DNA from: an uncultured Acidobacteriota bacterium
GTDB taxonomy: Bacteria; Acidobacteriota; Polarisedimenticolia; J045
Assembly (NCBI GenBank): GCA_964582785.1
Contig: CAZOTT010000001.1
Span: 15,007 to 79,006, forward strand
Direction of reading: 5' to 3'
DNA: 64,000 nt
In this document: piece after piece, positions 1 to 18,687 of the stretch
Numbering within the stretch: the stretch's first letter is position 1
Layout: each line of letters starts with the position of its first letter
Translations under genes and position numbers: made by a program
The notes under the pieces: model-generated
Told to the model about the DNA's origin: nothing
The model's input: only the letters and a program-made list of their open reading frames with translations
Database searches by the model: none

Positions 1-583
1 CCGAGACGATGTCGCCGATCAGCAGGAACTCCTTCACCTTCGTCCAGTAGTAGACCGTCGACTGGCCGATCTCGAACACGGCGATGTAGAGCCCCCCGAG
101 GGTTCCGAGCACGTCCCCGAGAACGGTCAGGACAGGCAGCATCACCAGCAGGGCGACCATCCGGGGCCATACCAGCTTCTTCACCGGGTCCGCGCCCAGG
201 GCCCGCAGCGCGTCCACCTGCTCGGTGACGGCCATCGAGCCCAGTTCCGCCGCGATCCCCGCACCGACCCGGGCTGCGATCATCACGGCGGTCAGGACGG
301 GGCCCAGCTCCTTGACCACCGACACGCCGACGAACGAACCGACGTAGATCCGCGCCCCGTAGGCGGCCAGCGTGTAGGACACCTGCAGGGCCATCACCGC
401 CCCGGTGAAGACCATGGTCAGGGCGACGAGGGGGAGGGAACGCACGCCCAGCCGGTACATCTGCTCCAGGAGGAGCCGGAACTCCACGGGGCGGCGGAAG
501 GTGACCCGCACCGTCTCCCAGGTCAGGAGCACCACCCGTCCGCTGGTTGCGAGGATCCCGGTCAAGCGTCCGCCCCCTTGCAT
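1..583 (-). CDS. mlaE: MlaE/YrbE-family ABC transporter permease (phospholipid transport). C-terminus is truncated by the window edge; the start codon complement is at 581-583.
   Basis: Reverse-strand translation MQGGGRLTGILATSGRVVLLTWETV...LPLVALTMVFTGAVMALQ...AAELGSMAVTEQVDALRALG matches the MlaE permease family. GC3 bias is strong. Confidence 0.8.
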   Translation of the reverse strand, partial: MQGGGRLTGILATSGRVVLLTWETVRVTFRRPVEFRLLLEQMYRLGVRSLPLVALTMVFTGAVMALQVSYTLAAYGARIYVGSFVGVSVVKELGPVLTAVMIAARVGAGIAAELGSMAVTEQVDALRALGADPVKKLVWPRMVALLVMLPVLTVLGDVLGTLGGLYIAVFEIGQSTVYYWTKVKEFLLIGDIVS

Positions 584-603
584 GCCCCCCGCGCGCCGGC
601 GCG

Positions 604-1059
604 CTATTGTACCGGTTCCCGGCGGAAGAGCGCGGGCGCCAGTCCCCCCGCCGCCGCGCGCAGCAGGACGAGGTGCAGGGTCGCCAGCGCCCCGTCGACG
701 AGGGCGATCCCGAGGAAGAAGAGGTCCGCCCGCCGCAGGAGCACGTCGACGGCGAACAGGGCGAGTCCACCGTAGCGCAGCAGGATCGCCACGGCGGCCA
801 CCGGCGCCAGCCGCCGGGGTTCCCGCCAGACCAGCAGGTAGATCCCCCCGAGGGCGACCAGGAACAGGCCGCAGAGGTCGAGGTAGACCCGGGGCTCCGG
901 CAGGGTCACGTGGAGCACGGGGGCCAGCGACTCCTGGGCCAGCAGGATCGCCAGGCCGAACGCCCCGTCCACCAGGGCTCCCAGCAGGAAGGAAAGGCCG
1001 AGGGCCCGGAACGCCCAGGGGGACCCGGCGGCCGGGCCGGCGGTGCCGTCGCCGTCCAT
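604..1059 (-). CDS. Hypothetical small integral membrane protein (about 151 aa, about 4 TM helices).
   Basis: Internal start MDGDGTAGPAAG... lies inside the track ORF 604..1788(-). It is followed by hydrophobic helices (LGLSFLLGALVDGAFGLAILL..., LFLVALGGIYLLVW...). No family recognised. Confidence 0.45.
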   Translation of the reverse strand: MDGDGTAGPAAGSPWAFRALGLSFLLGALVDGAFGLAILLAQESLAPVLHVTLPEPRVYLDLCGLFLVALGGIYLLVWREPRRLAPVAAVAILLRYGGLALFAVDVLLRRADLFFLGIALVDGALATLHLVLLRAAAGGLAPALFRREPVQ

Positions 1060-1116
1060 CGTGCGCCTCCCGCCCCGCCCTTGTCCCGGCGGCGGGGCAT
1101 CTCTATTCTCGCGCCC

Positions 1117-1836
1117 ATGGTACGCGGAATCCTCGTCGCCCTCTTCCACCTCGTGTCGGTCCCCCTCTATTCCCTGGTCGCGATCGCGGGGGACGTCCTG
1201 TTCCCCGGCCGGGAATGGATCCCCCGGGTCGGCGCCGCCTGGTCGCGGCATACCCTGCGCCTCGCCGGCGTGCGCGTGGAGGTCGAGGGGGCCGGGATCC
1301 TCGCGGAGAACCGGCCGGCGGTGCTGGCGGCCAACCACACGTCCGCGATGGACATCTACGCCGTCTGCTCCTCCGTGCCGGTCCCGTACCGGATGGTCGC
1401 CAAGGCGGAGCTGTTCCGGATCCCGCTCTTCGGACGCGCCCTCCTCCGGGCCGGGTTCGTTCCCCTCCAGCGCCGGCCGAGCCGCCGGGACCTCCGGGCG
1501 ATCGAGCGGGTCCGGGCGGACCTCCGCCGGGGAGCGATCGTGTGCTTCTTCCCCGAGGGCACCCGGAGCCCGGACGGCCGCCTGCGCCCGTTCAAGACCG
1601 GGGCGTTCGTCCTGGCGATCCGGGAGCAGATCCCGGTCATCCCGGTGGCGATCGAGGGCGCCTGCCGGGTCCAGCGCCGGGGCAGCCTCCGGATCCGGCC
1701 GGGGACGATCCGCTTCCGGGTCCTGCCCCCGCTGCCCACCGCCGGCCGGGACCTGGACGAGCGGAGGGACCTGGCCCGGGAGTGCCACGACCGGATCGCG
1801 GCGGCCCTCCCGCCGGACCAGCGCCCGGCAGGTTGA
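1117..1836 (+). CDS. plsC: 1-acyl-sn-glycerol-3-phosphate acyltransferase (lysophosphatidic acid acyltransferase).
   Basis: MVRGILVALFHLV...ANHTSAMDIYAV (HX4D acyltransferase motif)...FFPEGTRSPDGRL. An ATG at 1117 lies inside the track ORF 547..1836. Confidence 0.85.
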   Translation: MVRGILVALFHLVSVPLYSLVAIAGDVLFPGREWIPRVGAAWSRHTLRLAGVRVEVEGAGILAENRPAVLAANHTSAMDIYAVCSSVPVPYRMVAKAELFRIPLFGRALLRAGFVPLQRRPSRRDLRAIERVRADLRRGAIVCFFPEGTRSPDGRLRPFKTGAFVLAIREQIPVIPVAIEGACRVQRRGSLRIRPGTIRFRVLPPLPTAGRDLDERRDLARECHDRIAAALPPDQRPAG

Positions 1837-1858
1837 CGCCGCCGGTCCCCCGGATGAA

Positions 1859-1888
1859 GCGGGGCGCCGGCCGCCGCCGGCGCCCCGC
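1859..1888. terminator. GC-rich perfect hairpin (12-bp stem, gcggggcgccgg / ccggcgccccgc) between convergent plsC and the porin gene. Probable bidirectional terminator, with no clear U-tract.
   Basis: Inverted repeat read directly from the sequence. Confidence 0.4.
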
Positions 1889-1909
1889 GTCGTGGGAGCG
1901 GTCTCCTGG

Positions 1910-4084
1910 TCAGAAGCTCCTGCTGACCATCACCGAGAGCACGTTGTACCGGCCCGACTCGTCCTCGAGGATCGGGTCGTTGTCGTGGTAGTCGGTCAGC
2001 GTCCAGCCGAGTTCGAGCCCGTACCCGGACGGCAGCCGCCAGCGGGCCCCGAGGTTGAGGTCCCAGGTGCGGACCGAGACGTCCGACAGCTCGTTGACCA
2101 TCTTCCAGTCCCGCGACAGGAAGGAAGCGCCCACCGGGCTGCCGTACGGGGCGAACATGTCCCAGCGGTCCATGCCGCCGGTCATCCGGTTGTACTCGAT
2201 GCCGCCGAAGAGCTGGCCGTTTTCACCGAAGGGGGTACCGAACTCGGTCCCGAGGAAGGTGCCGTCGATCTGGTAGGCGTCCGAGCTTTCATCCCGCCCA
2301 AACTGGGCGGAGGCGAGGGCGCCCGCTCACCCGTTCATCAGCGGGATACACAGGTGTGTCTCCTGGTCCTCCCGCAGCAGGACCCCCGTCACGGTGGTGT
2401 AGAACCGCTCGTTCGGCGTCCACCAGAGGGACGCGCCGACCTCGGCCACGTCGTGGGTCCAGTCGGACACCCGCGTCTGGTCGTTCTGCTCCGAGAGCCA
2501 CTTCCCGTGGAGCGTCAGGGTCGTCTGCTCGGAGGGCACCAGCGTCAGCCGGGTCCGCAGGGCGATCCGGTCCGTGGGCCGGTTCGACAGGTCGGCGATC
2601 CGCCGGCGGTGCAGCTCGAAGTACTGGAGGGACGACCAGGGGAAGTTGGCCGGGTCCGCCACCAGGGCCGGGTCCTCGCCGACCGCGAGGCAGCCGCCCT
2701 TCAGGTTGCGGAACGGGTCGCTGGCCTGGTACCACTCCGCCTCGACCCGGTAGCGGGCGCCGTTCTCGAACCGGCCGAGGAGCTGGGTCCTCAGGGTGTA
2801 CTCCCGGGTGTTGGTCCCGCCACCGTTGTCCACCCGGAAGTTGTCCCGGTCGATGTCCCGGTAGCGCAGGGAGGTCTTCAGGCGGTGGCGCCGGTGTTCC
2901 CCGAAACGCCACACGTACTCCCCGGCCGCGGAGACGACCGTCCGGTCCGCGGCGGACCGGCGGGTCCAGTCGATCTCCACGTCCCGGTCCGCGTAGACGT
3001 CCCGGTAGTAGAGGCCCGCCTGCGGCCCGGCGGAGCCCGGGTACTCCACCACGTCGACGAAGACGTCGTCCGTGTCGACGTTCTCGAGGCGCCCCCGGAG
3101 CGAGAAGGAGTGGGCCTCATCCAGCACGTGGAGCCAGCGTGCCCGGAACGAGTAGTACTTCGCCCGGAGCCCCGTGTGGTCGCTCTCGGCCTTCTGGTAG
3201 GCGGCGGCGGCGTCGAGATGGTCGTGCTCGCCGGTCCAGAAGAGGTGGAGCACGTGGGCGTCCCGGTCATGGCCGGGAACCAGGCCCACCGGCAGGGTCA
3301 CGGGGCCGCCGATGCCGAAGCTCGCCCGGTTGTCGAACACCGGAACCTTCTTCGTGGGGTGGAGCACCTGCTCGAAGACCCGCCGCACCGGGTCGGCGTC
3401 GGCGTCGAAGTTGCTCGAGGTGTACTCGTAGCGCACCCCCCAGTTCGACTTCAGGTAGGCCACCCGGAGGGTGACGTCGTCCATCGTCTGGTCGACGGAG
3501 GCCGACTGGCCGACGATGTGGCAGGTGCGGCAGTGGCCCGCGGAGAGCTGCTGGTGGCTGCCGGACCGGCGCATGTGGCGCGCCAGCAGGGCGAACTCCC
3601 ACGCCCGGTTGTTCACCGGCCGCCAGGCCAGCCGCGCGTGGTCGTCCTCGAACCGGTAGCGGTACCTCGCCCCGGGGTCCATGTCATCGTGGCGGACGAC
3701 CTTGCCGTGCTCGTCCGTCGCGGCGAGGTTCTCCAGCGGATCGTGGGGCAGGTTGTGGACGAAGCGGTTCATGTCCGCCTCGAAGGTGAAGGCATGGGCG
3801 GCGACCAGCTCCAGGTGGTGCCGCTGGTCGTCCGGGTCGAGCAGCTCCATGTCCAGCGACAGGCTGGTGTCGCCGCCGAACCCGGCGTCGAACCAGGCGG
3901 AAAACGCCGCGCTCGACGAGTCCACCTGGTATTCCGCCGCCTTGTTCCGGCTGTTCCGCGCCCGGACCACGTGGGCCCCCACGGCCACCTCACCCGATCC
4001 CCCGCCGTCGTCGGCCGGCACGGCCGGCACGGCGAGCGCCAGGGCGAGGACCGCGAGGAGAACGATCGGCAGTCTGCGTTTCAT
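1910..4084 (-). CDS. MtrB/PioB-family outer-membrane porin of a porin-cytochrome conduit (about 724 aa). The frame is interrupted by an in-frame TGA at 2327-2329. Upstream segment is 2330..4084, downstream segment is 1910..2326.
   Basis: Signal peptide MKRRLPIVLLAVLALALAVPA. Long beta-barrel-like sequence. Both segments are in the same frame with strong GC3 bias. The C-terminal segment ends ...NVLSVMVSRSF with an aromatic terminal residue typical of OMPs. The stop overlaps the 5' side of the mtrA-like gene. Confidence 0.7.
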
Positions 4085-4097
4085 GGGGTGGTCCTCC

Positions 4098-5060
4098 TCA
4101 ACGGGTGAGCGCCCGCCCCTGGCCCACGGTCGACTGGCTCGGGAGATCCGAACCGTGGACGGAGACGTGGCACTGGGTGCACTTGGTCAGGAAGGCGTGC
4201 TTCATGCCGTTCCTGCCGAACGGATTGTCGAAGGTGTCGCCCCCGTAGACGACCTCGGTCTCCTCCGGGCCCGCGAGCCCCGCGTGGAAATGGGCCTCGT
4301 GGCAGGTCAGGCAGATGTAGGGCTCGGTCTGTGCGAGGAGGCGCGGCGCCACCGACCCGTGGGGCTTGTGGCAGATGGTGCAGTCCTCCTCCACCGGCTC
4401 GTGCTGGAAGACGAACGGGCCCCGGTACTGGGGGTGGCACGAGAGGCAGAGATCGTTCTTCCGGAACTCCGTCTTCAGCAGGCCCGGCGTCGTGCCGTGG
4501 GGATCGTGGCAGGACGCGCAGGTCATCTTCCCCTCGGGGACCGGGTGGTGGGAGGGCATCCTCGTCTCGGCCCGCACCTCCGGGTGACAGGAGAAGCACT
4601 TCTCCTCGGGAACCTCCTTCGCCCGGTGCCCCAGCCGGGCCGCCGCCCCGGCCTTCGCCGGGTCGGGATGGATCTCGTGACAGTCGAGGCAGGAAAGCCC
4701 CGCCCGGGCGTGTTCGCTGGCCGGCCAGGCTCCCATGTGGCTGACCGAGGCATGGCACCCGAGGCAGGTCGCGGAATCCTTCGCCGGGTCATCGCCGGGA
4801 AAGTGCCGGATCAGCGCGGGATCGGCCTCCTCCACGTGTTTTTCCGTCGGTCCGTGGCAGGAAGCGCAGGCCCGGGAGAGCCCGAACCAGTCTCCCTGCA
4901 CCAGCTTCCCGTGGGGGGTGGCCGCGAACGACGCCACGAGGTCCTCGTGGCAGTCGGCGCAGGCCTGGCCCGGTGGGTCCGCCGCCCGGCTGGGCGGCCC
5001 GAGGGCCCACAGCCCGACCAGGGCCAGGGCCCCGGCCAGTCCGATGCTGAGGCGTTTCAT
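4098..5060 (-). CDS. MtrA/PioA/MtoA-family periplasmic decaheme c-type cytochrome (320 aa, 10 CXXCH motifs).
   Basis: Signal peptide MKRLSIGLAGALALVGLWALGPPSRA, then CADCH, CASCH, CLGCH, CLDCH, CFSCH, CASCH, CLSCH, CTICH, CLTCH and CTQCH. Size and heme count match MtrA. Sits immediately upstream of the porin on the same strand. Confidence 0.85.
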   Translation of the reverse strand: MKRLSIGLAGALALVGLWALGPPSRAADPPGQACADCHEDLVASFAATPHGKLVQGDWFGLSRACASCHGPTEKHVEEADPALIRHFPGDDPAKDSATCLGCHASVSHMGAWPASEHARAGLSCLDCHEIHPDPAKAGAAARLGHRAKEVPEEKCFSCHPEVRAETRMPSHHPVPEGKMTCASCHDPHGTTPGLLKTEFRKNDLCLSCHPQYRGPFVFQHEPVEEDCTICHKPHGSVAPRLLAQTEPYICLTCHEAHFHAGLAGPEETEVVYGGDTFDNPFGRNGMKHAFLTKCTQCHVSVHGSDLPSQSTVGQGRALTR

Positions 5061-5299
5061 CCGATCTCCCTCCTTGCGCTCCCCCGGGGGAGCGGCTTGC
5101 CCCGGGTTCATCGATTCCCGGGAAGATGCGAACGGACGCGGCCGCCCGGCCGCGGATTTCCGGAGGACACACCCCCGCCTCCGGCCCTCCCGCGGGCCCG
5201 GGGAAGCGGGGCTTTCGCGGCGGGGCGGGCCGCACCGGCCTGCCCGTTGGCGAACAGTCACGTGCGCCTGGAAACGATCACGGTCACGGCTCCTCCGAC

Positions 5300-5400
5300 C
5301 GGGGGGAAACATACCGAACAGTCAGCCGACGGGTCAAGCGCGCTTACTTACTTGCAAGTGGAGGCCGATTCCGGCTAGCCTTGGCCGATTCCACCCCCCG
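5300..5400. promoter_or_regulatory. Divergent regulatory region between the mtrA-like (-) and cbcL-like (+) genes. Contains perfect palindrome ACTTGCAAGT (5350-5359), direct repeat GGCCGATTCC x2 (5363-5372 and 5383-5392) flanking palindrome GGCTAGCC (5373-5380), and a minus-strand candidate sigma70 promoter (-35 TTGACC about 5332-5337, -10 TATGTT about 5308-5313).
   Basis: Locally lower GC. Repeats and palindromes read directly from the sequence. Confidence 0.4.
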
Positions 5401-5537
5401 GCGGGGATCACCGAGGGAGCCGGTCCCCGCCGCCGGCCGCCGGCGCGGCCGCGCATCATCTCGCCCGGATCGACCGGGGCGGCGCCGATGCCGGGCGCAA
5501 CCCGACACCGGCTCGTCCGGGCCAGGGAGGAGCCACC

Positions 5538-7595
5538 GTGAACCGGAAGATCCGTCCGGGCGGGCGGCAGGGAGTCCTCGCGGGGCTGGCGGCGCTCACG
5601 CTGCTGGCCGCCCTCGCGGGCGTTCCCGCGGTCGCCATCGACGACGACACCTGCCTCGCCTGTCACTCCGACCCCGACGCGCTGTCCGAGGCCGGCGACC
5701 GCGCGAAGGACCTCGTGGTCACCCCCGACTCCCTCGCGGGGTCGGTCCACGAGGGTTTCTCCTGCACGGACTGCCACCAGGACCTGGCTCCCGACGACGC
5801 GGAGATCCCCCACCCGCCGGAACTGCAGCCGGTCGACTGCAGCCAGTGCCACGACGACGTGGCGGAAGGGTTCCACGCCAACTCGGTGCATGCGACCGCC
5901 ATCCGGCCGCGTCCCGGCGCGCGCAGCGCCTGCAGCGCCTGCCACGGGAACCACCACATCCTTGCCGTGGGGGACGCGGAGTCGCCGGTCTCCCGGCAGC
6001 ACGTGGCCGATCTCTGCGCCCGCTGCCACGAACCGGCGGCGGACCACGGCGACCCGGTCAGCCAGTGGAAGGACTCGATCCACGGGCGGGCGGTCCTCCT
6101 CTGGGAGGTCGAGGAGGCCCCGACCTGCGTCGCCTGCCATCCCGCCCACGCAATCCGGCAGCCGGAGGACCCGGCGGCGGCGATCAACCGGCGCCGGGTG
6201 ATGGACACCTGCGGCAACTGCCACCCGAGCGAGCGGAAGGCGGTCCTGCGGGGTGTCCACGGGAAGGCCTGGCAGGAGGGCAACCTGGCGGCGGCCACCT
6301 GCGTCGACTGCCATGGTTCCCACGGCGTCGACCGCCCCGGGGAGCGCGCCTCGACCGTCTACGCCGCCCGGGTCAGCGAGACGTGCGGCAGGTGCCACGA
6401 CGATCCGGACCTCGCCGTGCGGTTCCACCTGCGGCCCGACCGCGTCGCCACCTACCGGCAGTCCTACCACGGCAAGGGAACGGCCTGGGGCTCCCCGGTG
6501 GTCGCGAACTGCTCCTCGTGCCACGGCTACCACGACATCCGCGGCATGAACGACCCGGCCTCGACGATCTACCCGGCCAACCTCAGGGAGACCTGCGGCA
6601 AGGCCGCCTGCCACCCGGGCGCCAGCGAGCAGTTCGTCCGGTTGCCGGTCCACGCCGACCGCTTCTTCATCCCGCCGACGGCGCGCCTCGTCCTCCGCTA
6701 CCTCCGGATGGGCTACATCCTGATCATCTCCCTGACGATCACCTTCATGGTCGTCCACCAGGTCCTGGAAATCCGGGCGATCCTCCGGCTGCGCCGGGAG
6801 ATCCGGGCGGCCGAACGGAGGGGCCACCGCCACCTGGCGACCCTGCCCCCGGTGGAGCGACCGGCGCGGGAACCGCTCTCCCGTTTCGTGACCCGGGACG
6901 GGAAGCACTACGTCATCCGGTGGGACGTCAACCAGGTGGTCCAGCACATCCTCCTCGTGGTCTCCTTCACCACGCTCGTCATCACCGGCTTCCCGCTGGA
7001 GTTCCCCGCCTCCTGGGCGAGCCACCTCGGCAGCCTCGGCCCGGTCCTGTTCGACCTGCGGGGGATCCTGCACCGGGGGGCCGCGATTCTCCTGATCCTC
7101 GTCTCGATCTACCACGTCGGGTGGCTGCTCTTCACGGGCCGCGGCCGGCGGGAACTGTGGGAGCTCGTTCCCCAGCCCCGGCGGTTCCGGCGCAAGCTGG
7201 TGGGCAACCTCCGCTGGTTCCTCGGCCTCGAAAAGGAGCCCCCGCCGGGAGTGCGGTACACCTACCGGGAGAAGCTGGAATACTGGGCCCTGGTCTGGGG
7301 CAACTTCGTCATGATCACGACCGGCATCATCCTCTGGACGGCGCCGCGCTGGCACTACATGGTCGTGGCCGTCGCCCGGCTGGTGCACAGCTACGAGGCG
7401 CTTCTCGCCCTGCTGGCGATCCTCGTCTGGCACATGATCGGCGCCCACCTCAAGCCGGGAATCTTCCCGATGAACCCGACCTGGCTCACCGGCGGTCTCG
7501 ACATCGAGGCGTTCCGCGAGGAGCACGCGGAAGAGTACGCGAAGATGGTGGCCTGGTACGGGTTCGATCCGATGACCGAGGAGGTGGGCCGATGA
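5538..7595 (+). CDS. CbcL-like inner-membrane quinol:cytochrome oxidoreductase. N-terminal periplasmic multiheme cytochrome c (about 10 CXXCH plus one CX4CH) fused to a C-terminal FdnI/HydC-type dihaem cytochrome b membrane domain.
   Basis: GTG start with RBS AGGGAGGAG. Signal peptide. CLACHS, CTDCHQ, CSQCHD, CSACHG, CARCHE, CVACHP, CGNCHP, CVDCHG, CGRCHD, CSSCHG, CGKAACH. The C-terminal domain has TM helices with conserved His (HQVLEI, VVQHILLVV, HRGAAILLILVSIYHVGW, VHSYEALLALLAILVWHMIGAH). Confidence 0.8.
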   Translation: MNRKIRPGGRQGVLAGLAALTLLAALAGVPAVAIDDDTCLACHSDPDALSEAGDRAKDLVVTPDSLAGSVHEGFSCTDCHQDLAPDDAEIPHPPELQPVDCSQCHDDVAEGFHANSVHATAIRPRPGARSACSACHGNHHILAVGDAESPVSRQHVADLCARCHEPAADHGDPVSQWKDSIHGRAVLLWEVEEAPTCVACHPAHAIRQPEDPAAAINRRRVMDTCGNCHPSERKAVLRGVHGKAWQEGNLAAATCVDCHGSHGVDRPGERASTVYAARVSETCGRCHDDPDLAVRFHLRPDRVATYRQSYHGKGTAWGSPVVANCSSCHGYHDIRGMNDPASTIYPANLRETCGKAACHPGASEQFVRLPVHADRFFIPPTARLVLRYLRMGYILIISLTITFMVVHQVLEIRAILRLRREIRAAERRGHRHLATLPPVERPAREPLSRFVTRDGKHYVIRWDVNQVVQHILLVVSFTTLVITGFPLEFPASWASHLGSLGPVLFDLRGILHRGAAILLILVSIYHVGWLLFTGRGRRELWELVPQPRRFRRKLVGNLRWFLGLEKEPPPGVRYTYREKLEYWALVWGNFVMITTGIILWTAPRWHYMVVAVARLVHSYEALLALLAILVWHMIGAHLKPGIFPMNPTWLTGGLDIEAFREEHAEEYAKMVAWYGFDPMTEEVGR

Positions 7596-8431
7596 AGACG
7601 ATCGTCACCGCCATGGCGGTCCTCGCCTTCGCGCTGGCGCCCGGGCAGGCGGCGGGCAGGACGTCCTGCGACTGTCACGACGGGCTGGCCCCCCGGGAGA
7701 AGGCCCCCCGCATCGACCTGCGCGGCTGGCTCACCGACGGGGTCCACCGGAAGCAGGGGTGCCTGGCCTGTCACCCCGGCGCGGACCAGGTTCCCCACCG
7801 GGGGAAGGTCCTCACCGTGTCCTGCGCCTCCTGCCACGAGGCGGAGGCGAAGGACTGGGACCAGACGGTGCACGGCCGGGTGGAAGGGAAGGTTCCCGGC
7901 ATCCGGGGGTGCATGACCTGCCACGTGGAACACGACTGGTTCGCGGCGAACGATCCGCGGTACCGCTATACCAACAGCGGGCTGCTCCGCACCTGCGTTT
8001 CCTGTCACCGGCCGACCCAGGTGGAGTGGAGCTTCTCGATCCCGGTCAAGCCGCCCCCCGGGGGAGGTCACTGGCCCGCCTGCATCCACGGGCACATCGT
8101 GCGGGGCGGCCAGCTCTTCATCGCCGCCTGCGAGTCGTGCCACGGGGCCCACCAGGTGTTCCCCGCGGACGATCCCCGCTCCGCGGTCAACGTGGCGAAC
8201 ATCGAGAAGAACTGCGGCCGGTGCCACGAGGGCCTGGACCCGGAGCGGATCGTGACGTCGCTCTGCGTGCGCCGGGACACGGCCCGCTGGTACGTTTCGA
8301 ACTACTTCGATGTCTGGTATCTTTGGACCGGGGGCATCGCCGCCCTGTCGATCTTCGGCCTCCTGGTCATGGGGATGGTCGGGGCGTCGCTGCGGCGGAA
8401 GAAGAAGGATGGCGCCCCCCCGGTACGCTGA
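7592..8431 (+). CDS. Multiheme c-type cytochrome (about 6 CXXCH plus an unusual CDCH) with a single C-terminal transmembrane anchor.
   Basis: ATGA overlap with the preceding gene. Signal peptide MKTIVTAMAVLAFALAPGQAAG. CLACHP, CASCHE, CMTCHV, CVSCHR, CESCHG, CGRCHE. C-terminal YLWTGGIAALSIFGLLVMGMVGASLRRKKK. Confidence 0.75.
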   Translation: MKTIVTAMAVLAFALAPGQAAGRTSCDCHDGLAPREKAPRIDLRGWLTDGVHRKQGCLACHPGADQVPHRGKVLTVSCASCHEAEAKDWDQTVHGRVEGKVPGIRGCMTCHVEHDWFAANDPRYRYTNSGLLRTCVSCHRPTQVEWSFSIPVKPPPGGGHWPACIHGHIVRGGQLFIAACESCHGAHQVFPADDPRSAVNVANIEKNCGRCHEGLDPERIVTSLCVRRDTARWYVSNYFDVWYLWTGGIAALSIFGLLVMGMVGASLRRKKKDGAPPVR

Positions 8432-8488
8432 ACCGGGAGACGGAGGCCGGGCGCAGGCGCGCCCGCCGGGGAAAAAGGAGGAAACACG

Positions 8489-8863
8489 GTGCGCAAGATC
8501 CTGTTCCTGCTGACCGTGGTGGCCGCGCTCGGGCTCGTCGCCGTTGCCGCCGAGATCCCGAAGGACAAGCAGGTCCTGCACTTCAAGACGATGATGGGCA
8601 CGGTGACGTTCAGCCACCGGGCCCACGTCGACCGGGCGCCGAACGGCTGCGTCGACTGCCACCACAAGACCAAGCCGGGGGAGATGCCCCAGCCCTGTTC
8701 CGCCTGCCACCAGAAGAAGAAGGCCGAGGGGAAGAAGCTCAAGCTCAAGGATGCGGTCCACAAGCGGTGCTGGGGCTGCCACCAGAAGAACCTGGACGCC
8801 GGCAAGAAGGGCGGCCCGGTCAAGAAGGACTGCAAGGTCTGCCACGTGCGCAAGAAGAAGTAA
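8489..8863 (+). CDS. Small periplasmic tetraheme cytochrome c3-family protein (124 aa).
   Basis: GTG start with RBS AAAAAGGAGGAAACA. Signal peptide. CVDCHH, CSACHQ, CWGCHQ, CKVCHV. Lys-rich. Confidence 0.8.
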   Translation: MRKILFLLTVVAALGLVAVAAEIPKDKQVLHFKTMMGTVTFSHRAHVDRAPNGCVDCHHKTKPGEMPQPCSACHQKKKAEGKKLKLKDAVHKRCWGCHQKNLDAGKKGGPVKKDCKVCHVRKKK

Positions 8864-8886
8864 TCCCGGTCACGATGATCGCGTGG

Positions 8887-8920
8887 GCGGGCCGGGGTGG
8901 TTCCCGGCCCGCTTCCTGTT
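8887..8920 (+). terminator. Hairpin (10-bp stem gcgggccggg / cccggcccgc, 6-nt loop) followed by TTCCTGTT. Candidate intrinsic terminator of the cytochrome operon.
   Basis: Inverted repeat 24 nt after the c3 stop codon. Confidence 0.45.
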
Positions 8921-9168
8921 CCGGGGCCTTTCCGCCCGGCGAACCGGGAGCCTTCCGGCAGGGCCGTCCCGGAATTCCCGCTACTCCCGCGGCGCTCTCC
9001 CGGTGCCGGGGCCCGGCGCTCCCACCCCCGGGACTCCCGTCCCCCGCGGGGTGTCGTCCCGGAACCACGGGAAGCCCGGGTCCCGGGGGACGGCGGCGTT
9101 TCACCCCCGTCTCCACCGAATCGCCGGTGGACGGTGCCGGGAACCTCCTCCCCGCACCCCGGGGTCGC

Positions 9169-12100
9169 TCAGAAGAGCTTGAGGACGAGGAACATCGCCT
9201 CCACGTCCCCCTCCACCGGGTCCAGGTCGCTCCGGAGGGCGTACCCGACGTCGAAGCGCAGGATCGTCTCCCACGGGCCGAGGAAGCTGGCCGCGACCCC
9301 GACGCCGGTGTGGTCCGTCATCCCGGGAGCGATCCGGGGATCGTGCACCCGGGCGTGGTCCAGGACCGCGTCGAAGCGCACGACGTCCGAGATGTTGAAC
9401 GAGTACTTCACCTGGGCCAGGAGCCCGTGGTCGTACCGGATGCCCGACCCGCCGAAGCCCCGCAGCCGGTCCCCCGACAGGAACCCGAAGGTGAACGACG
9501 AGAACCGGTCCAGGTCGTCGCCGGCCTGGTACCTGGCGGACACCTCGATCTTCTGGAAGAGGGGCAGGAACCAGCTCTTCTGGACGCCCGCCCACCAGGT
9601 CGTCCAGTCCTTCGTCCGCGCCACCTCCTCCCGGGTGGCCACCGCGCCCTCCGGGCCCCAGGGAAGCCAGTCGGACCGGTCGTGCCACGAGGCCCCGGTC
9701 ATCAGGCTCCATCCCTTCCGGTCGAAGGCCAGTTCCAGTTCCTCGATCCGCTCCCAGTGGTCCGCCGGCACCACGAAGCGCCGCGTGTCCTCGTGCCGCT
9801 GGTAGACCACCCGGTCCATCTCTCCCATTGCCCGCAGCTTGACGAAGCTTCCCAGGGGAACGCCCAGGTTCACCCGCAGGGCCTGGCGCAGGCGCTGCAG
9901 CCGGTGCGACTCGATTTCCTCGCCCCGGACGTAGTCCTTGTCGGTGGAAGGGTAGCCGACGGCGTTCAGCGTCACGCCGAGGTCGAGCCGTCGGCCCAGG
10001 ACACTGGGGTCGGAATAGGTGACGTTGGCGAACGCGCCGGCGAAGAAGACGTTCAGGATCTTCTTCCGGCCGAAGAGATTGATGTTCGTGTAGTTGACGC
10101 CCGCGAGCGGGATCACGCCCTCCGTGCCCTCGTCGTACAGGGCGCCCCCCAGCAGGAACAGCTGGGTCGGGTCACCCTTCTCGTTGACGACCCGGCGCCC
10201 GTCCTTCGTCTTCGAGAGCCACTTGAACCCCTCCGGCGTGTCCCGGAGCATCTGCCGGTCGGAGGCGTACGTGCGCGCCCGCAGGTCGGCGAACCCGGGG
10301 TCGTTGATCTCCGGGGGCCCGAAGGTGATCTGGCGCAGCACGACGAGGTTCGACCCGTTCACGGTGTAGATCTGCTGGCCGGAGAGCTCCTCGAGAAGCC
10401 AGTAGGTGGTCCCGTCCGGTCCCTCCCAGGGACGGAACAGCTGGGTCTGCTCGTCGCTGATCGCCGGCGGGGTCAGCTCGGTCTGGACCGACGACACCTT
10501 GACCAGGGCGCCGGTCGCCTGGTCGATCCACGCGCGCCCCCGGTAGAGGGATGCGCCCGGCGACAGCGGCTGGAAGCGGAGCCGCCAGCAGCGGCGCCCT
10601 TCCACCTCCTCCTCGCCCTCGAGCCGGTACCGGTAGCGCCGGTCCAGGTTCAGGTCGAGGGGCAGCGCGACCACCCGGTCCTTCGTCACCAGCGGGATCT
10701 CCGGGATCTTCTTCCACTTCAGTTTCACGCCGTCGAAGAACGTTTCGCGGATCGCCCACTCCCCGCCGGTTTCCGGGTCCCAGAACCAGTCGGCGTGCAT
10801 CTCGATCTCGAAGGTCCCGGTGACCTGGGCATACCGCACGCGGAACTTGATCCATCCCTCCCGGTGCACGTTCCGCAGGCGATCGTCCTGGAACGAGCGG
10901 AACCGCTGGTGGAAGGCGATGATCTCGTCGGGCGTCACCCGGTGGACGCCCGCGACTTCCTCCCGCTCCTCGGCGAGGTCGATTCCCGGCGAGACCCGGA
11001 GCCGGTTGACGAGCAGCATCCGGGGCCGGCGGGCGAGGGGCGCCTCGACCCGCACGTGGGCATCGTCCAGGGGCACCGCCCGCAGGAAGCGCTCCGTCCC
11101 GGTGAGCGGGTCCACGGCCCGGTAGCCCCGCCGCATCGCCTTCTCGAAGACGAACGCGGCCCGGGCGTCCCCGGGGACCCCGGGACGGCCCGCCCAGTAG
11201 AAGAGGACCTCCCGGAAGCTCCGGTCATCGAAGAAACGGACCCAGCGGACCGGCACCGGGCCCGGCTGGACCTCGATTCCCGCCCCCTTCCGCGGAGAGA
11301 GCCCGAGCCCCGGCCCGAGGACCCGGGCGATCGCCTCGAGGGCCCCCGCGGTGGCGCGGGCCGCCGCCGCGTCCTGTTCCGGCAACCGCAGCAGGGTGGC
11401 GTCCGCGCCCGCGGCCAGCAGGTCGAGGGCCCGGGCCAGGACGTCGTCCGAGGCGGCTTCCCCCCGGGTCTCCGCCCGCGCATCGGCCAGGACCAGCAGG
11501 GCCGCCCCCGGGTCGAGGGTCCGGAGTTCCTCCCGCAGGGCGCTCACGGCCTTCCCCGCGTCCCGGCCCACCGGGAGGACGAGGGTCACCCCGTCCACGT
11601 AGGGGGCCAGGTCCCCCGTGGCCTTCCAGGCGCGGGCCAGCAGGTCCACCTCGGGGCCCTCGTGAACGACCACGTCCACCGCGGCGGCCGGGTCCTCCCC
11701 GTGAATCGTGACCGAGGCGGCCTTGATCTCGTAGGCGGCGAGGCGGGCGTCCCCCGCGGTTCCGGGGGCGGGCAGGAAATCCGCCAGGAGCCACGCGGCC
11801 ACCTCCCCCTTCAGTTCCCGGGCCCCCGCCCGCAGCATCCGCAGCCAGTCCCTCCGCCGGGCCTCGAGGCCGGTGCCCGGAACGGCGGGGGACCCGTGGA
11901 CCAGCACCGCCACCCGCGCCCCCCGGGACCGCTGGGCCCGGACACGCTCGACGAGGGGAGCCGGGTCCGGCGTTCCGCCCCGGGGAAACAGGTCCCGGCA
12001 CCGGGTCTCGACGACCACCCAGGGGACACCGTCTCCCGGGGCGGCCTCCCCGTGGCCGCGGGCCGCCGGCGTGATCCCGCTGCCGGCCTCGACCCAGCCG

Positions 12101-12243
12101 AGGGCGTGGACCGGAACCGCCGGCTGGACCAGGCCGGTGACCGCCGGGCGGGCGGGGCCGGCCGCGTGGACGGCCCCCGGGAGGAGCAGGGCCGGGAAAA
12201 GGATCGGGAGGACGCGGAGCAGCAGCTGGCGGGTCGCCGTCAT
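9169..12243 (-). CDS. Large (1024 aa) secreted outer-membrane protein of unknown function. Signal peptide, Ala-rich N-domain, central LolA-like domain, and C-terminal putative beta-barrel ending in Phe.
   Basis: Start MTATRQLLLRVLPILFPALLLPGAVHAAG with RBS GAGGAGAA. C-terminal ...VEAMFLVLKLF. Central segment WIKFRVRYAQVTGTFEIEMHADWFWDPETGGEW...YRGRAWIDQATGALVKV resembles LolA-like lipoprotein-carrier folds. The rest of the 1520-aa track ORF upstream looks non-coding. Confidence 0.6.
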   Translation of the reverse strand: MTATRQLLLRVLPILFPALLLPGAVHAAGPARPAVTGLVQPAVPVHALGWVEAGSGITPAARGHGEAAPGDGVPWVVVETRCRDLFPRGGTPDPAPLVERVRAQRSRGARVAVLVHGSPAVPGTGLEARRRDWLRMLRAGARELKGEVAAWLLADFLPAPGTAGDARLAAYEIKAASVTIHGEDPAAAVDVVVHEGPEVDLLARAWKATGDLAPYVDGVTLVLPVGRDAGKAVSALREELRTLDPGAALLVLADARAETRGEAASDDVLARALDLLAAGADATLLRLPEQDAAAARATAGALEAIARVLGPGLGLSPRKGAGIEVQPGPVPVRWVRFFDDRSFREVLFYWAGRPGVPGDARAAFVFEKAMRRGYRAVDPLTGTERFLRAVPLDDAHVRVEAPLARRPRMLLVNRLRVSPGIDLAEEREEVAGVHRVTPDEIIAFHQRFRSFQDDRLRNVHREGWIKFRVRYAQVTGTFEIEMHADWFWDPETGGEWAIRETFFDGVKLKWKKIPEIPLVTKDRVVALPLDLNLDRRYRYRLEGEEEVEGRRCWRLRFQPLSPGASLYRGRAWIDQATGALVKVSSVQTELTPPAISDEQTQLFRPWEGPDGTTYWLLEELSGQQIYTVNGSNLVVLRQITFGPPEINDPGFADLRARTYASDRQMLRDTPEGFKWLSKTKDGRRVVNEKGDPTQLFLLGGALYDEGTEGVIPLAGVNYTNINLFGRKKILNVFFAGAFANVTYSDPSVLGRRLDLGVTLNAVGYPSTDKDYVRGEEIESHRLQRLRQALRVNLGVPLGSFVKLRAMGEMDRVVYQRHEDTRRFVVPADHWERIEELELAFDRKGWSLMTGASWHDRSDWLPWGPEGAVATREEVARTKDWTTWWAGVQKSWFLPLFQKIEVSARYQAGDDLDRFSSFTFGFLSGDRLRGFGGSGIRYDHGLLAQVKYSFNISDVVRFDAVLDHARVHDPRIAPGMTDHTGVGVAASFLGPWETILRFDVGYALRSDLDPVEGDVEAMFLVLKLF

Positions 12244-12393
12244 CGGGTTCTCCTCGCGGTACCTTCCGGGCAGCCGTGGACGGCCACGGCAGAGGTGGTA
12301 GCTTACCGCCTCTTGGATGCGCGCCCGTACCCCGGGGATACGTTTCCGCCCGCCGCTGCGGGTACCATCCTTTCCGAGGAGGAGGTGCGCGCC

Positions 12394-13191
12394 ATGCCCG
12401 GTCGCCCGGTCGTCACGTTCCTCACCGACTTCGGTCTCGCCGACGGCTACGTCGGCGCGATGAAGGGGGCCCTCCTGCGGGCCGCGCCGGACGTGCTGCC
12501 GGTGGACCTCACCCACGACGTTCCCCCCCACGACGTCCTGGCCGGGGCGTTCCTGCTCGCCGGCGCGGCGCGGTGGTTCCCGCCGGGAACGGTTCACGTG
12601 GCGGTGGTGGACCCGGGGGTCGGAACCCCCCGCCGGGGCCTCGCCGCCCGGGCGGGGGACTGGTTCTTCGTCGCCCCGGACAACGGGCTGCTGGAGCTCG
12701 TCCTGCGGGAACAGCCCGCGGCCGAGGTCCGCCGGATCGCCAACCCCGACCTGTGCAACCCGGATCCGCACCCGACCTTCCACGGCCGCGACGTGTTCGC
12801 CCCGGTGGCCGGGGCCCTGGCCCGGGGGGTCTCCCTCGCGGAGATCGGGCCCGCGGTGGACGACCCGGTGCGGCTCCCGCTGCCGGAGGTCCGGGCGGAG
12901 GAGCGGGGGCTGGCGGTCCCGGTCCTGCACGTCGACCGGTTCGGGAACGTCGTCCTCGGGGTCCGCGCGGGGGAGCTGCGGGCCCGGCTGGGGGACGGCC
13001 CGTGGCGCATCGTCGAGCCGACCCCGGCGGGGCCGGTCTTCCCCGCCCGCACCTACGGGGAGATCCCCCCCGGTTCCCTCGCGCTCCTCGCCGGGTCGTC
13101 GGGCTGGGCGGAACTCGCCCTCGACCGGGCCCCGGCGGCGGACCGGCTCGGGGTCGCTCCCGGTCACAGGGTCCTGATATCGAGGAGGTGA
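12394..13191 (+). CDS. S-adenosyl-L-methionine hydroxide adenosyltransferase (DUF62, SAM hydrolase/halogenase superfamily).
   Basis: MPGRPVVTFLTDFGLADGYVGAMKGALL...VHVAVVDPGVGT...FFVAPDNGLL. RBS GAGGAGGAGG. This is the only real part of the 1810-aa track ORF 7759..13191. Confidence 0.8.
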   Translation: MPGRPVVTFLTDFGLADGYVGAMKGALLRAAPDVLPVDLTHDVPPHDVLAGAFLLAGAARWFPPGTVHVAVVDPGVGTPRRGLAARAGDWFFVAPDNGLLELVLREQPAAEVRRIANPDLCNPDPHPTFHGRDVFAPVAGALARGVSLAEIGPAVDDPVRLPLPEVRAEERGLAVPVLHVDRFGNVVLGVRAGELRARLGDGPWRIVEPTPAGPVFPARTYGEIPPGSLALLAGSSGWAELALDRAPAADRLGVAPGHRVLISRR

Positions 13192-13673
13192 CGGCAGGAC
13201 AGGAGGTACCAGCCCCCCTGCCGCTCGAGGGGGATGAACTTCCGGTCGTCGTTCAGGAGGTCGAGGAGCCGGCGGCGGCTTTCCGGCATCTCGATCCAGA
13301 CCACGCCGTGCCAGTGCCGCTCGTCCGGGGGCAGGGAGGCCAGGGTGAGGACGGTGTCCTCCCGGGCGAGCCCCTCGTGATCGTCGCTGAGCCCGGTGTC
13401 CACCGGCCCGGGCACGCGGATCGCCACGATCCGGCCCTTGTTCAGGAGGTGCCCTCCCTCCGGGGTGTCCAGCGGGAGGAACGGGTCCGGGGAAGCCAGC
13501 AGGTCCACGACCCGCTCCCGCCCCTCGTGCAACCCGGTCCGGGGCAGCACGTAGAAGTTCCCGGCGAGGTTTCTTCCGCCCTCGAGGAGCACCTCGACGG
13601 GTACCGTCTCCTTCGGAATCCGCCAGATCTCCCGGCCGGCGCCGGGCACGTCCCGCGTCGTTCCCTGGGTCAT
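13164..13673 (-). CDS. Hypothetical protein (169 aa). Convergent with the DUF62 gene and overlaps it by 28 nt.
   Basis: MTQGTTRDVPGAGREIWRIPKETVPVEVLLEGGRNLAGNFYVLPRTG.... GC3 bias. No family recognised. Confidence 0.45.
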   Translation of the reverse strand: MTQGTTRDVPGAGREIWRIPKETVPVEVLLEGGRNLAGNFYVLPRTGLHEGRERVVDLLASPDPFLPLDTPEGGHLLNKGRIVAIRVPGPVDTGLSDDHEGLAREDTVLTLASLPPDERHWHGVVWIEMPESRRRLLDLLNDDRKFIPLERQGGWYLLSCRHLLDIRTL

Positions 13674-13826
13674 GCCGCGCTCCCGGGGCCCCCGGGCCCC
13701 TCCCGGGGGAAGATAGGTTCGCCGGCACCACGCCGCACCCCGTTCGCTTCCCGCCGGTTTGCTCCCCCCAGCACCGGGACCTATCGTCCCCCCGGGAGGA
13801 GCGTGTCCTCCCGGCGGGGACCCAGG

Positions 13827-14963
13827 ATGAGCCTCTCGGGACAGCTCTCCACGATGAACCTGGCCGACCTGCTCCAGTGGGTGGCCGGTTCGGCGAAGAC
13901 CGGGCGCCTCGATTTCCGGCGGGGCCCGGTGGTCAAGGAGGTCTACGTCCAGGAGGGGCTGATCGTCGGGGCGGCCTCGAACCAGCCCACCGAGATGCTC
14001 GGCCACCACCTGGTCGCCCGGGGGAGGCTGACGGAAGAGCAGCTCCGGGCCGCGATCCTGGCCCGGCGGGAGGGGGACGAGTTCCTCGGCCAGGTCCTGG
14101 TCCGCCTCGGGTTCGTCAGCCAGGACGACCTGCTCCGGGCCCTCGCCGAGCGGACCGAGGAGATCATCTACTCCCTCTTCGAGTGGGAGGACGCGGACTT
14201 CCACTTCGAGCCGGGAGCCCGCCCGGGGCCGAAGGTCGTCCTGATCGCCCTCCCCGTGGACCAGGTCCTGCTCCGGGGCGTGCATCGCCACGACGAGATG
14301 GAACGGATCCGCCAGGTCTTCCCCTCCGGGAGGGTCGTGCTGTCCCGCACCGGCGTCCCCGGCCCCCGGGAAATCGTCGAGCACCCCCTCGCCCGGCGGA
14401 TCCTCGAGGCGATCGACGGCCGCCGCACGATCGACGAGCTGGCCTTCCACGTCCACGCCAGCCCCTTTCCCGTGATGAAGTTCCTCTTCGAGGCGCACCG
14501 CCTCGGCCTCGTCGCGATCGAGTCCCTCGAGGGTCCTCCCCTCGCCCTCGTCACCGGCGAGGCGCCCGATGCCGAGCTGGCCGGGCTGACCGGGCCCGCC
14601 CGGCTCGCCGCCGCGCGGGAGCACCTGGAGAAGGGAGACCCGGAAACGACCCTGACCCTCCTCGAGGACGAGGGGGGCGCCGACCCGGAAACCCGGGACC
14701 TCCGCCGCCAGGCGGAGGAGGCGTTCCTGGAGAAGGTCTACGGAGAGGAGTTTCCGCGCGGGGCCGTCCCGCAGCTGGCCCGCCCGCTCCACGAGCTGAC
14801 CGGCGAGGCGCTGCGCCCGGAGGAGTTCTTCCTCCTGTCCCGCATCGACGGAAACGTCAGCCTCGGGGACATCATCGAGATCGCCCCCCTCCAGGAGGTG
14901 GAAACCGTGCGGGCCCTCCGCCGCCTGGTGCGCCGGGGGCTCGTCCGGCTTCCTTCGCCGTGA
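13827..14963 (+). CDS. DUF4388 domain-containing protein (PATAN-like, myxobacterial/delta-proteobacterial type).
   Basis: MSLSGQLSTMNLADLLQWVAGSAKTGRLDF... matches the characteristic DUF4388 N-terminus. 379 aa. Confidence 0.7.
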   Translation: MSLSGQLSTMNLADLLQWVAGSAKTGRLDFRRGPVVKEVYVQEGLIVGAASNQPTEMLGHHLVARGRLTEEQLRAAILARREGDEFLGQVLVRLGFVSQDDLLRALAERTEEIIYSLFEWEDADFHFEPGARPGPKVVLIALPVDQVLLRGVHRHDEMERIRQVFPSGRVVLSRTGVPGPREIVEHPLARRILEAIDGRRTIDELAFHVHASPFPVMKFLFEAHRLGLVAIESLEGPPLALVTGEAPDAELAGLTGPARLAAAREHLEKGDPETTLTLLEDEGGADPETRDLRRQAEEAFLEKVYGEEFPRGAVPQLARPLHELTGEALRPEEFFLLSRIDGNVSLGDIIEIAPLQEVETVRALRRLVRRGLVRLPSP

Positions 14964-15036
14964 TCCATCCGCGCCCGGCAGCGGGCAAGGGGGACTCACC
15001 GGATACAATAAAGCATTTATCTTCACAGGTTATGCG

Positions 15037-15066
15037 TTGACACTCGATCTGACGTCCCCGTAAGAT
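15037..15066 (+). promoter_or_regulatory. Candidate sigma70 promoter inside an AT-rich island. -35 TTGACA, 18-nt spacer, -10 TAAGAT. Sits about 55 nt upstream of the 19-heme cytochrome gene.
   Basis: Sequence ...acaataaagcatttatcttcacaggttatgcgTTGACActcgatctgacgtccccgTAAGATcc. An unusually AT-rich stretch in a 70% GC genome. Confidence 0.5.
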
Positions 15067-15119
15067 CCCGCCACGATGCCGCCCCGGTACGCGGCCGGGG
15101 CTCCGTCGGGAGAACGCCC

Positions 15120-17918: not shown

Positions 17919-17927
17919 GGCGGCGGG

Positions 17928-18680
17928 TCACCGGCGGCGCCCCCGCGGGGGCGCCGCCTCCCCCGGGGGCAGCGTCCGGACCCGGAGGCGGTGGGTCTCC
18001 CGGGAACCGAGGAGCCGCAACCGCTCCCGCAACAGCCGCCCCGCCTCCCGGGCCGGGGGCAGCGCCTCTCCACCGAGGAGGACGCGGTTCTCCCACAGCT
18101 CGAATTCCACCAGCAGGCGGGCGGGATAGTGGGCGCCGGCCGCGGCGGCGATCTCCCCCCACCCCATCCCCGGCACCGGGAGCAGGTTGACCACGGCGAC
18201 CCCCCCGGGGGCGAGGCGGCGCGGGATCAGTTCCGGGAGCCCGTCCAGGCTGACGGGCGGCTTCGTACCACCCTCGACCCCGGGAACCGACAGGTCCTCC
18301 AGGATCGCGTCGAAGCGGCGGCGGCGGCGGACCAGCCAGTCCAGGGCATCCCCCTGCTCGACCCGAACCCGGCCGGCCCAGGAACCGCACAGCTCCCGGA
18401 AGAGAGCGACCCCGCCGAGATCCAGGTCCACCGCCTCCACCGGGTGGCTCCACCCGAGGCCCCGCAGCGGCGCCAGGACACCCCCGGCCGCGAAGCCGAG
18501 CAGGGCCAGCCGGGGACCCGGCGCCAGGGCCACCACCGCCGCGGCGAGCAGGTCGAACAGGTCGTGGGTCGGCCCGGGGGCGCAACGAACCTCCGAGAGC
18601 ACGACGTCCGCCTGGACGAGGCGGGCTCCCCCGGGAAACCGCTCGACGCGCGGTCGTCCCCCGGGCCCGGGCGCGCCCAC
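17928..18680 (-). CDS. Spermidine-synthase-like class I SAM-dependent methyltransferase.
   Basis: ...ALLGFAAGGVLAPLRGLGW...EAVDLD...RFDAILEDLSVPG. Located downstream of the OPT transporter on the same strand. Confidence 0.55.
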   Translation of the reverse strand: MGAPGPGGRPRVERFPGGARLVQADVVLSEVRCAPGPTHDLFDLLAAAVVALAPGPRLALLGFAAGGVLAPLRGLGWSHPVEAVDLDLGGVALFRELCGSWAGRVRVEQGDALDWLVRRRRRFDAILEDLSVPGVEGGTKPPVSLDGLPELIPRRLAPGGVAVVNLLPVPGMGWGEIAAAAGAHYPARLLVEFELWENRVLLGGEALPPAREAGRLLRERLRLLGSRETHRLRVRTLPPGEAAPPRGRRR

Positions 18681-18687
18681 GCGGGCC

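Follow-up and report, generated by a model that had tools for sequence, protein, structure and literature searches.

The window analysed here, a 64-kb stretch of DNA from an uncultured Acidobacteriota bacterium, carries two divergent groups of cytochrome genes: leftward, an mtrA-like gene and a gene for an MtrB/PioB porin; and rightward, a cbcL-like gene and genes for a 6-haem cytochrome and a cytochrome c3 (Table 1). The mtrA-like start (minus strand) and the cbcL-like start (plus strand) are separated by a divergent spacer of 477 bp (5061-5537), the core of which is AT-richer (57-62% GC) than the window as a whole (73%). The Pfam assignments of the flanking genes, the length of the spacer and its AT-richer core all agree with an earlier sequence-only reading of this DNA, and every element listed in that reading was found in its place when the sequence was read directly. 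An N-terminally extended MtrA starting at the ATG at 5312 (ORF 4098-5312) was rejected because the indels within 5061-5312 in relatives are not multiples of three and because the gene calls made elsewhere are 320-321 aa long.

Table 1. Positions of genes, predicted control elements and related sites in the window
Feature	Position	Strand	Basis or remark
mtrB/pioB-like gene (MtrB/PioB porin)	2327-4084	-	Pfam
mtrA-like gene, deca-haem	4098-5060	-	Pfam
mtrA-like + mtrB/pioB-like operon	2327-5060	-	Pfam; synteny in relatives
cbcL-like gene (multihaem cytochrome c + cytochrome b561 fusion)	5538-7595	+	Pfam
6-haem cytochrome gene	7593-8431	+	sequence, CxxCH counts
cytochrome c3 gene	8489-8863	+	Pfam, sequence, CxxCH counts
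cbcL-like operon (cbcL-like gene + 6-haem cytochrome + cytochrome c3)	5538-8863	+	
Predicted P(mtrA)	5308-5337	-	-35 TTGACC 5337-5332, 18-nt spacer, -10 TATGTT 5313-5308
Predicted P(cbcL)	5352-5381	+	-35 TTGCAA 5352-5357, 18-nt spacer, -10 TAGCCT 5376-5381
Invariant run AAACATACCGA	5307-5317		plus-strand writing; holds minus-strand -10 TATGTT
Invariant run AGTCAGCCG	5320-5328		plus-strand writing
Invariant CGGCTGACT	5320-5328	-	within spacer of predicted P(mtrA)
Invariant run GTCAAG	5333-5338		plus-strand writing; holds minus-strand -35
10-bp palindrome and invariant run ACTTGCAAGT	5350-5359	.	holds -35 of predicted P(cbcL); kept in L001, L002, L067, L066/L055
GGCCGATTCC, proximal copy	5363-5372	+	in variable spacer of predicted P(cbcL); not conserved
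Invariant 16-bp run CGGCTAGCCTTGGCCG	5372-5387		longest in core; GGCTAGCC, TAGCCT and GC-rich stretch to predicted start site
8-bp palindrome GGCTAGCC	5373-5380		holds TAGCCT
GGCCGATTCC, distal copy	5383-5392	+	only GGCCG(A/G)T kept, as end of 16-bp block
mtrA-like 5' leader, predicted	5061-5300	-	
GGAGGAGCC, then 9-codon upstream ORF	5258-5297	-	GTG 5287 to TGA 5258, MTVIVSRRT-stop; 5' end of mtrA leader
Hairpin GCGCTCCCCCGGGGGAGCGG	5076-5095	-	conserved; abuts ribosome-binding site GGAGGGAGA (5073-5065)
cbcL-like 5' leader, predicted	5388-5537	+	
cbcL leader hairpins	5400-5431, 5433-5453	+	one compensatory change each
Eight relaxed-pattern promoter-like sites	1081, 5337, 5352, 13759, 15037, 36573, 52787, 55312		
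TTGACA-18-TAAGAT	15037-15066	+	just upstream of second cbcL-like gene

A scan of a genome collection with the MtrA-like protein found the same divergent arrangement in two close Acidobacteriota relatives (L001 and L002); the arrangement is absent from many distant MtrA homologues in the same scan. Further relatives were added by protein search, cluster listing and contig look-ups: L067, which groups with L001 and L002; L066, L055 and L068, which form a second clade; and L069 and L070, which represent the window's own strain and show 1 difference in 2,963 nt, at window position 5341 (their position 720). This difference (C to T, plus strand) falls in a non-conserved palindrome, AAGCGCGCTT, between the two -35 boxes of Table 1. 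At its very end (positions 1-20), the short contig of L055 reads GAGGGAGCC, and all other lineages have the reverse complement GGCTCCCTC, including L066, which encodes an MtrA-like protein virtually identical to that of L055; the likeliest cause of the L055 reading is misassembly at the end of that contig. The conservation comparison rests on three deep lineages, namely the window strain, the L001/L002/L067 clade and the L066/L055/L068 clade. Four-fold degenerate sites of the mtrA-like gene, used as a neutral yardstick, are 63-68% identical in pairwise comparison and 44-49% invariant across the three lineages; since fewer than half of these sites have stayed unchanged, long invariant runs in the spacer are evidence of selection.

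The databases searched contain no orthologous spacer at 70-85% protein identity. Homologues at 57-61% MtrA identity (L056, L058, L063) have spacers that cannot be aligned with that of the window. In L056/L057 and L058-L062, at the same level of identity, the gene divergent from mtrAB encodes a small cytochrome c3 and not a CbcL, and tgt and queA lie beyond it; the presence of a cytochrome c3 gene opposite mtrAB in these loci implies an evolutionary exchange of the gene that partners mtrAB at the divergent promoter pair.

The leftward unit is preceded on the minus strand by the element TTGACC-18-TATGTT, 248 nt upstream of the mtrA-like start (5060). It matches the sigma-70 consensus at 9 of 12 positions and is the sole strict match in 4900-5700, where shuffled sequences yield 0.0; to read this match, and those of the relaxed scan below, as promoters is to assume that promoter rules for Acidobacteriota resemble those of E. 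coli. In all lineages CTTGAC and TCGGTATGTTT are invariant, and a relative at 57% identity has TTGACT-18-GATAAT upstream of its mtrA. The predicted start site at ~5300 gives an mtrA leader of ~240 nt. This promoter-like element and its long leader had already been proposed from the sequence alone, and the proposal is borne out by the strict match, by its invariance in relatives and by the position of the mtrA-like start. Only two strict matches occur in 1-20000, and the second, also with an 18-nt spacer, adjoins the upstream side of a second cbcL-like gene (15120-17918, 19 CxxCH motifs), which thus has a strong promoter-like site of its own, TTGACA-18-TAAGAT. A strikingly AT-rich tract, GATACAATAAAGCATTTATC, precedes that site (tract and site together within 15002-15066, plus strand); the Fur-like look of 15002-15021 was discarded, as its score of 10/19 is at chance level (P = 0.5).

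For the rightward unit, the earlier reading had overlooked a second promoter-like pair of hexamers on the plus strand: TTGCAA, inside ACTTGCAAGT, and TAGCCT, inside GGCTAGCC, with 18 nt between them. The two palindromes thus lie over the -35 and -10 elements of a predicted promoter on the cbcL side. The predicted start site of this promoter, at ~5388, is a purine (A/G) in all lineages and gives a cbcL leader of ~150 nt. With agreement at 7 of the 12 consensus positions, TTGCAA-18-TAGCCT falls short of the 9 that the strict scan requires, a point against it. Its hexamers are invariant, and across the three lineages the central spacer differs in sequence, never in length; a spacer of constant length and variable centre between invariant hexamers fits the pattern expected of a promoter. 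As direct reading of 5260-5537 shows no other plus-strand TAnnnT, P(cbcL) is the sole sigma-70-like candidate for the cbcL-like gene.

The specificity of such elements in this DNA was evaluated with a relaxed pattern, TTGnnn-N16-19-TAnnnT, which has 8 matches in the 64 kb (128 kb of strand) vs 2.67 expected (P = 0.01). At least six of the eight directly precede a gene start of matching orientation: the two in the 5061-5537 spacer and those before genes starting near 15120, 36611, 52713 and 55262. Another, at 1081-1109, falls within the ORF called for an acyltransferase, ahead of the Pfam domain, and may precede the true start of that gene if the ORF call is over-long; the eighth, at 13759-13787, is assigned to no gene. 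Spacer length is 18 nt in four of the eight sites and 17 nt in the other four. The textbook optimum for a sigma-70 spacer is 17 nt, and the 18 nt of both promoters in the divergent pair count against the promoter reading. When the 477-bp spacer is shuffled, the relaxed pattern appears on the plus strand in 1.4% of cases (P = 0.014), on the minus strand in 1.6%, and on both strands in none of 3000. In this genome of 73% GC, the pattern marks gene starts with high specificity and could serve as a simple promoter finder.

Alignment of the three lineages shows that the 81-bp segment 5307-5387, which contains both predicted promoters, has no indels in any lineage; its flanks have several. The four hexamers are invariant in all lineages, with the exception of the sixth base of the minus-strand -35, which is C or T. 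Conservation extends beyond the hexamers, to the AC and GT that flank TTGCAA, to the CGGC and TGGCCG that flank TAGCCT, and to CGGCTGACT in the leftward spacer, which together with CTTGAC forms a TTGAC/CTGAC direct repeat, 11 bp apart. From the neutral rate, the invariance of the four bases flanking TTGCAA has a probability of roughly P = 0.05. This additional conservation is not obviously explained by polymerase contacts alone, and a bound regulator could account for it.

The palindromes and the direct repeat for which the region was first singled out carry less weight. Chance levels were taken from dinucleotide shuffles of the 477-bp spacer, which contains 5 perfect 10-bp palindromes vs 1.47 expected; an AT-rich one such as ACTTGCAAGT has P ~0.03, and for a direct repeat of 10 bp falling inside 40 bp P is ~0.10, short of significance. 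In the 64 kb, GGCTAGCC occurs once vs 0.67 expected and ACTTGCAAGT once vs 0.18 expected. Palindromy alone is weak evidence in 73% GC DNA, and since palindromes come cheaply in such DNA and the repeat does not exceed chance, neither carries much as sole evidence. The two copies of GGCCGATTCC, whose starts are 20 bp apart, had been read as paired sites two helical turns apart. That pairing does not survive comparison with relatives: the proximal copy falls where the P(cbcL) spacer varies, and every relative has something unrelated there (GGCCCCTTTCC, GGTATCTTTCC or GGTCCGATGCG). Of the distal copy only GGCCG(A/G)T is kept. The pair is therefore confined to the lineage of this strain, and chance variation in that spacer is its simplest explanation. 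The region stands out from chance by its conservation together with its promoter geometry, not by its palindromes or its repeat.

These results make it reasonably probable that 5307-5387 is the shared core of two back-to-back sigma-70-type promoters, as predicted from their -35 and -10 elements. The -35 boxes are 14 bp apart and the predicted start sites ~88 bp apart. Polymerase bound at TTGACC-18-TATGTT would transcribe leftward through a ~240-nt leader into the mtrA/mtrB-like operon, and polymerase bound at TTGCAA-18-TAGCCT would transcribe rightward through a ~150-nt leader into the cbcL-like cytochrome operon. ACTTGCAAGT would then be mainly the rightward -35 box, placed in an AT-rich tract at the UP-element position for the leftward promoter, and GGCTAGCC would be mainly the rightward -10 box. 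The observations behind this model are the matches to promoter sequence, how rare these are, where they stand with respect to the genes and how they are conserved at fixed spacing; polymerase would start at ~5300 and ~5388 and need no further factor. The sequence-only reading had taken the region for an arrangement of transcription-factor sites co-regulating both units. Of that proposal, a functional and selectively conserved control region common to the two units stands, and a dedicated operator is not needed to account for the features.

An operator could nonetheless coexist with the two promoters, as an addition and not a replacement. According to this proposal ACTTGCAAGT, possibly with the CGGCTAGCCTTGGCCG block, would be the site of a dimeric transcription factor encoded elsewhere, and it has an appreciable chance of being correct, though one short of even. 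The centre of ACTTGCAAGT lies at about -33.5 from the predicted plus start site and about -54.5 from the predicted minus start site, so a factor bound there would sit over the cbcL-side -35 and at about -54 from the mtrA-side start, where it would act as a repressor of one arm and could serve as an activator of the other, thereby coordinating the two. The perfect dyad symmetry of ACTTGCAAGT and the invariance of all 10 of its bases, including the four outside the hexamer (roughly P = 0.05), are consistent with such a site, as are the fixed spacing among all conserved blocks and the fact that an AT-rich 10-bp palindrome is uncommon in the spacer (P ~0.03). Precedents exist in the homologous pioABC promoter of Rhodopseudomonas palustris, which uses palindromic AT-rich factor sites (PMC13345007), and in the mtr promoters of Shewanella, which require CRP (PMC4417206). 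Weighing against an operator, the promoter hexamers already cover most of the conserved bases, and palindromes are over-abundant throughout the GC-rich spacer.

The search for recurrence also argues against it. At up to 2 mismatches ACTTGCAAGT has no second copy anywhere in the 64 kb, the upstream region of the second cbcL-like gene included. It is also missing upstream of the more distant mtrA homologues; more generally, the palindromes recur neither in the 64 kb (at up to 2 mismatches) nor in 65 fetched loci other than orthologues. A lack of recurrence of the motifs elsewhere in the genome had been named in the sequence-only reading as grounds for refuting it, and within the 64 kb and the more distant mtrA loci the outcome goes against that reading. 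Its statement that no regulator gene lies adjacent is correct and extends to all ORFs scanned across the window, none of which has a DNA-binding domain. Comparison with FNR/CRP, CRP, sigma-54, Fur, IdeR/DtxR and Rex consensus sequences gave, for the best matches, P values of 0.19-0.99 against dinucleotide shuffles, so that no resemblance to any of these exceeds chance.

A metagenome scan for GGCTAGCC-N13-ACTTGCAAGT returned one orthologue (L064) and one unrelated site (L065). In the latter (894-960 of Ga0075420_100000040), ACTTGCAAGT and GGCTAGCC lie between a gene for an HxlR-family regulator and a transporter gene, and an inverted repeat, TACTTGCA-ttc-TGCAAGTA, adjoins them; the L065 site is probably the operator of its HxlR-family regulator. 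No HxlR homologue was found in the window, and the lead was dropped for that reason. A further candidate, GCTTGCAA, found ~295 nt upstream of mtrA in L011, L008 and L009, is a -35-like sequence in AT-rich DNA and was treated as uninformative.

A broader proposal, which we offer tentatively and consider rather doubtful as a whole, joins an operator to control in the leaders: ACTTGCAAGT, perhaps with the 16-bp block and the TTGAC/CTGAC repeat, would be an operator through which a regulator encoded elsewhere toggles or balances the cbcL-like and mtrAB-like arms, with a further layer made up of a leader peptide and the masking of ribosome-binding sites. If true, it would mean that the inner-membrane (cbcL-like) and outer-membrane (mtrAB-like) arms of extracellular electron transfer are balanced against each other in uncultured Acidobacteriota, and that a conserved 9-codon leader peptide and leaders masking their ribosome-binding sites form a second layer of control.

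That the leaders themselves carry the switch, with the DNA core providing constitutive promoters only, is an unlikely account of the regulation. In this account control would be mostly post-transcriptional and would reside in the 9-codon upstream ORF, the hairpin at the mtrA ribosome-binding site and a stretch of ~55 nt that pairs at the cbcL start. The upstream ORF (5287-5258) keeps its ribosome-binding site GGAGGAGCC, its length, its start (ATG or GTG) and its TGA stop in all three lineages, its peptides in relatives reading MTVLIHRRT, MTVLIHGRT and MTALVHGRT. This constancy favours a leader peptide; the substitutions counted in the alignment, 5/2/5 at codon positions 1/2/3, are not clearly concentrated at the third. 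The distance from GGAGG to the start, 4 nt vs 7-8 nt for the two real genes, speaks against it, and open frames arise easily in 73% GC DNA. The compensatory change in each of the two cbcL leader hairpins and the conservation of the hairpin next to the mtrA ribosome-binding site likewise favour structured leaders. Against this, 46 of 500 column shuffles reach the covariation observed for the two compensatory pairs, and neither leader folds more stably than its shuffles (z = -0.63 for cbcL, z = +0.46 for mtrA). Rfam, including GEMM, gave 0 matches at the gathering threshold over the whole window, and at E-values up to 10 only two nonsense matches in 5000-5600, with E above 5.

At the cbcL end of the spacer, hardly any position of 5481-5534 (54-55 nt, plus strand) differs between lineages. 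The stretch is better conserved than coding sequence and much better than four-fold degenerate sites, which speaks for a role of this part of the leader; its segment 5506-5518 is predicted to base-pair with 5526-5540, where the ribosome-binding site and the start codon lie. The same stretch overlaps a 17-codon ORF (5488-5541, plus strand) that runs from ATG 5488, reads MPGATRHRLVRAREEPP to its stop and ends in a TGA overlapping the cbcL-like GTG start (GTGA). Four of its six inter-lineage substitutions are at third positions, three of them synonymous; the L066 lineage lacks its stop codon, and there is no good ribosome-binding site ahead of the ORF. At the other end, a perfect 16-bp palindrome, GCTCCCCCGGGGGAGC (5078-5093), lies immediately upstream of the mtrA-like ribosome-binding site and is conserved as a hairpin in relatives; an alternative partner for its CUCCCC arm could be the GGGAGG of the ribosome-binding site. 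The evidence for these leader structures is weak, and they are presented as leads and not as findings.

Finally, that all of these features are chance patterns without function in an AT-richer spacer is very improbable. Palindromes are indeed frequent here and the direct repeat falls short of significance, but stretches of 10-16 bases have stayed unchanged against a neutral background of just 44-49% invariant sites, indels are missing from the 81-bp core, and the two-strand promoter geometry is found in 0 of 3000 shuffles.

The region is thus a real, conserved and ordinary divergent control region that reveals no new mechanism. Clusters of porin-cytochrome and CbcL-type genes are reported to be widespread in Acidobacteriota and transcribed in anoxic soils and peat (bioRxiv 10.64898/2026.05.27.727921), and the promoters and regulation of these clusters are not treated in that survey. 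For one such cluster the present analysis offers a map of two predicted starts, four hexamers, one invariant palindrome and two conserved leaders.

Comparison with known systems places the back-to-back promoter pair as follows. In Geobacter, GEMM-I riboswitches, which respond to a cyclic dinucleotide, precede cytochrome genes; the long 5' leaders before genes for extracellular electron transfer cytochromes are alike in the two cases, and the present leaders differ in having no GEMM or other Rfam match. The pio promoter of Rhodopseudomonas palustris TIE-1 carries CRP/FNR-type boxes at -44.5, where FixK binds, and at -137.5 (PMC13345007). It resembles the present locus in serving an MtrAB-type porin-cytochrome operon (PioA and PioB are homologues of MtrA and MtrB) and in having palindromic AT-rich upstream elements; however, the half-sites of ACTTGCAAGT have no spacer between them, and its match to TTGAT-N4-ATCAA is 6/10, no better than shuffles. 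In Shewanella oneidensis MR-1, the mtrC and omcA promoters (PmtrC and PomcA) are activated by cAMP-CRP (PMC4417206), and there too Mtr-type genes for extracellular electron transfer have dedicated promoters with upstream regulatory sites, whereas the present locus has no CRP-like box, a different gene order and a divergent cbcL partner, which the Shewanella promoters lack.

In symmetric bidirectional promoters, which arise from the symmetry of the -10 element, the two directions draw on common, overlapping core elements (Warman et al., bioRxiv 10.1101/2020.01.31.928960; PMC12825309). The present region is similar in that it is divergently transcribed and contains element sequences that are symmetric (TTGCAA within ACTTGCAAGT and TAGCCT within GGCTAGCC). 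It differs in that over 60 bp separate its -10 boxes (5308-5313 and 5376-5381) and the two promoters have no element in common; with -35 boxes 14 bp apart and no overlapping core elements, assignment to the symmetric class is ruled out. Classical back-to-back sigma-70 pairs differ from the present one in that here both spacers are 18 nt long, the setting is a 73% GC Acidobacteriota genome and the starts are predicted from sequence; the likeness lies in two separate -35/-10 promoters on opposite strands of an AT-richer spacer between divergent operons, in a geometry that is fixed and that makes joint control possible.
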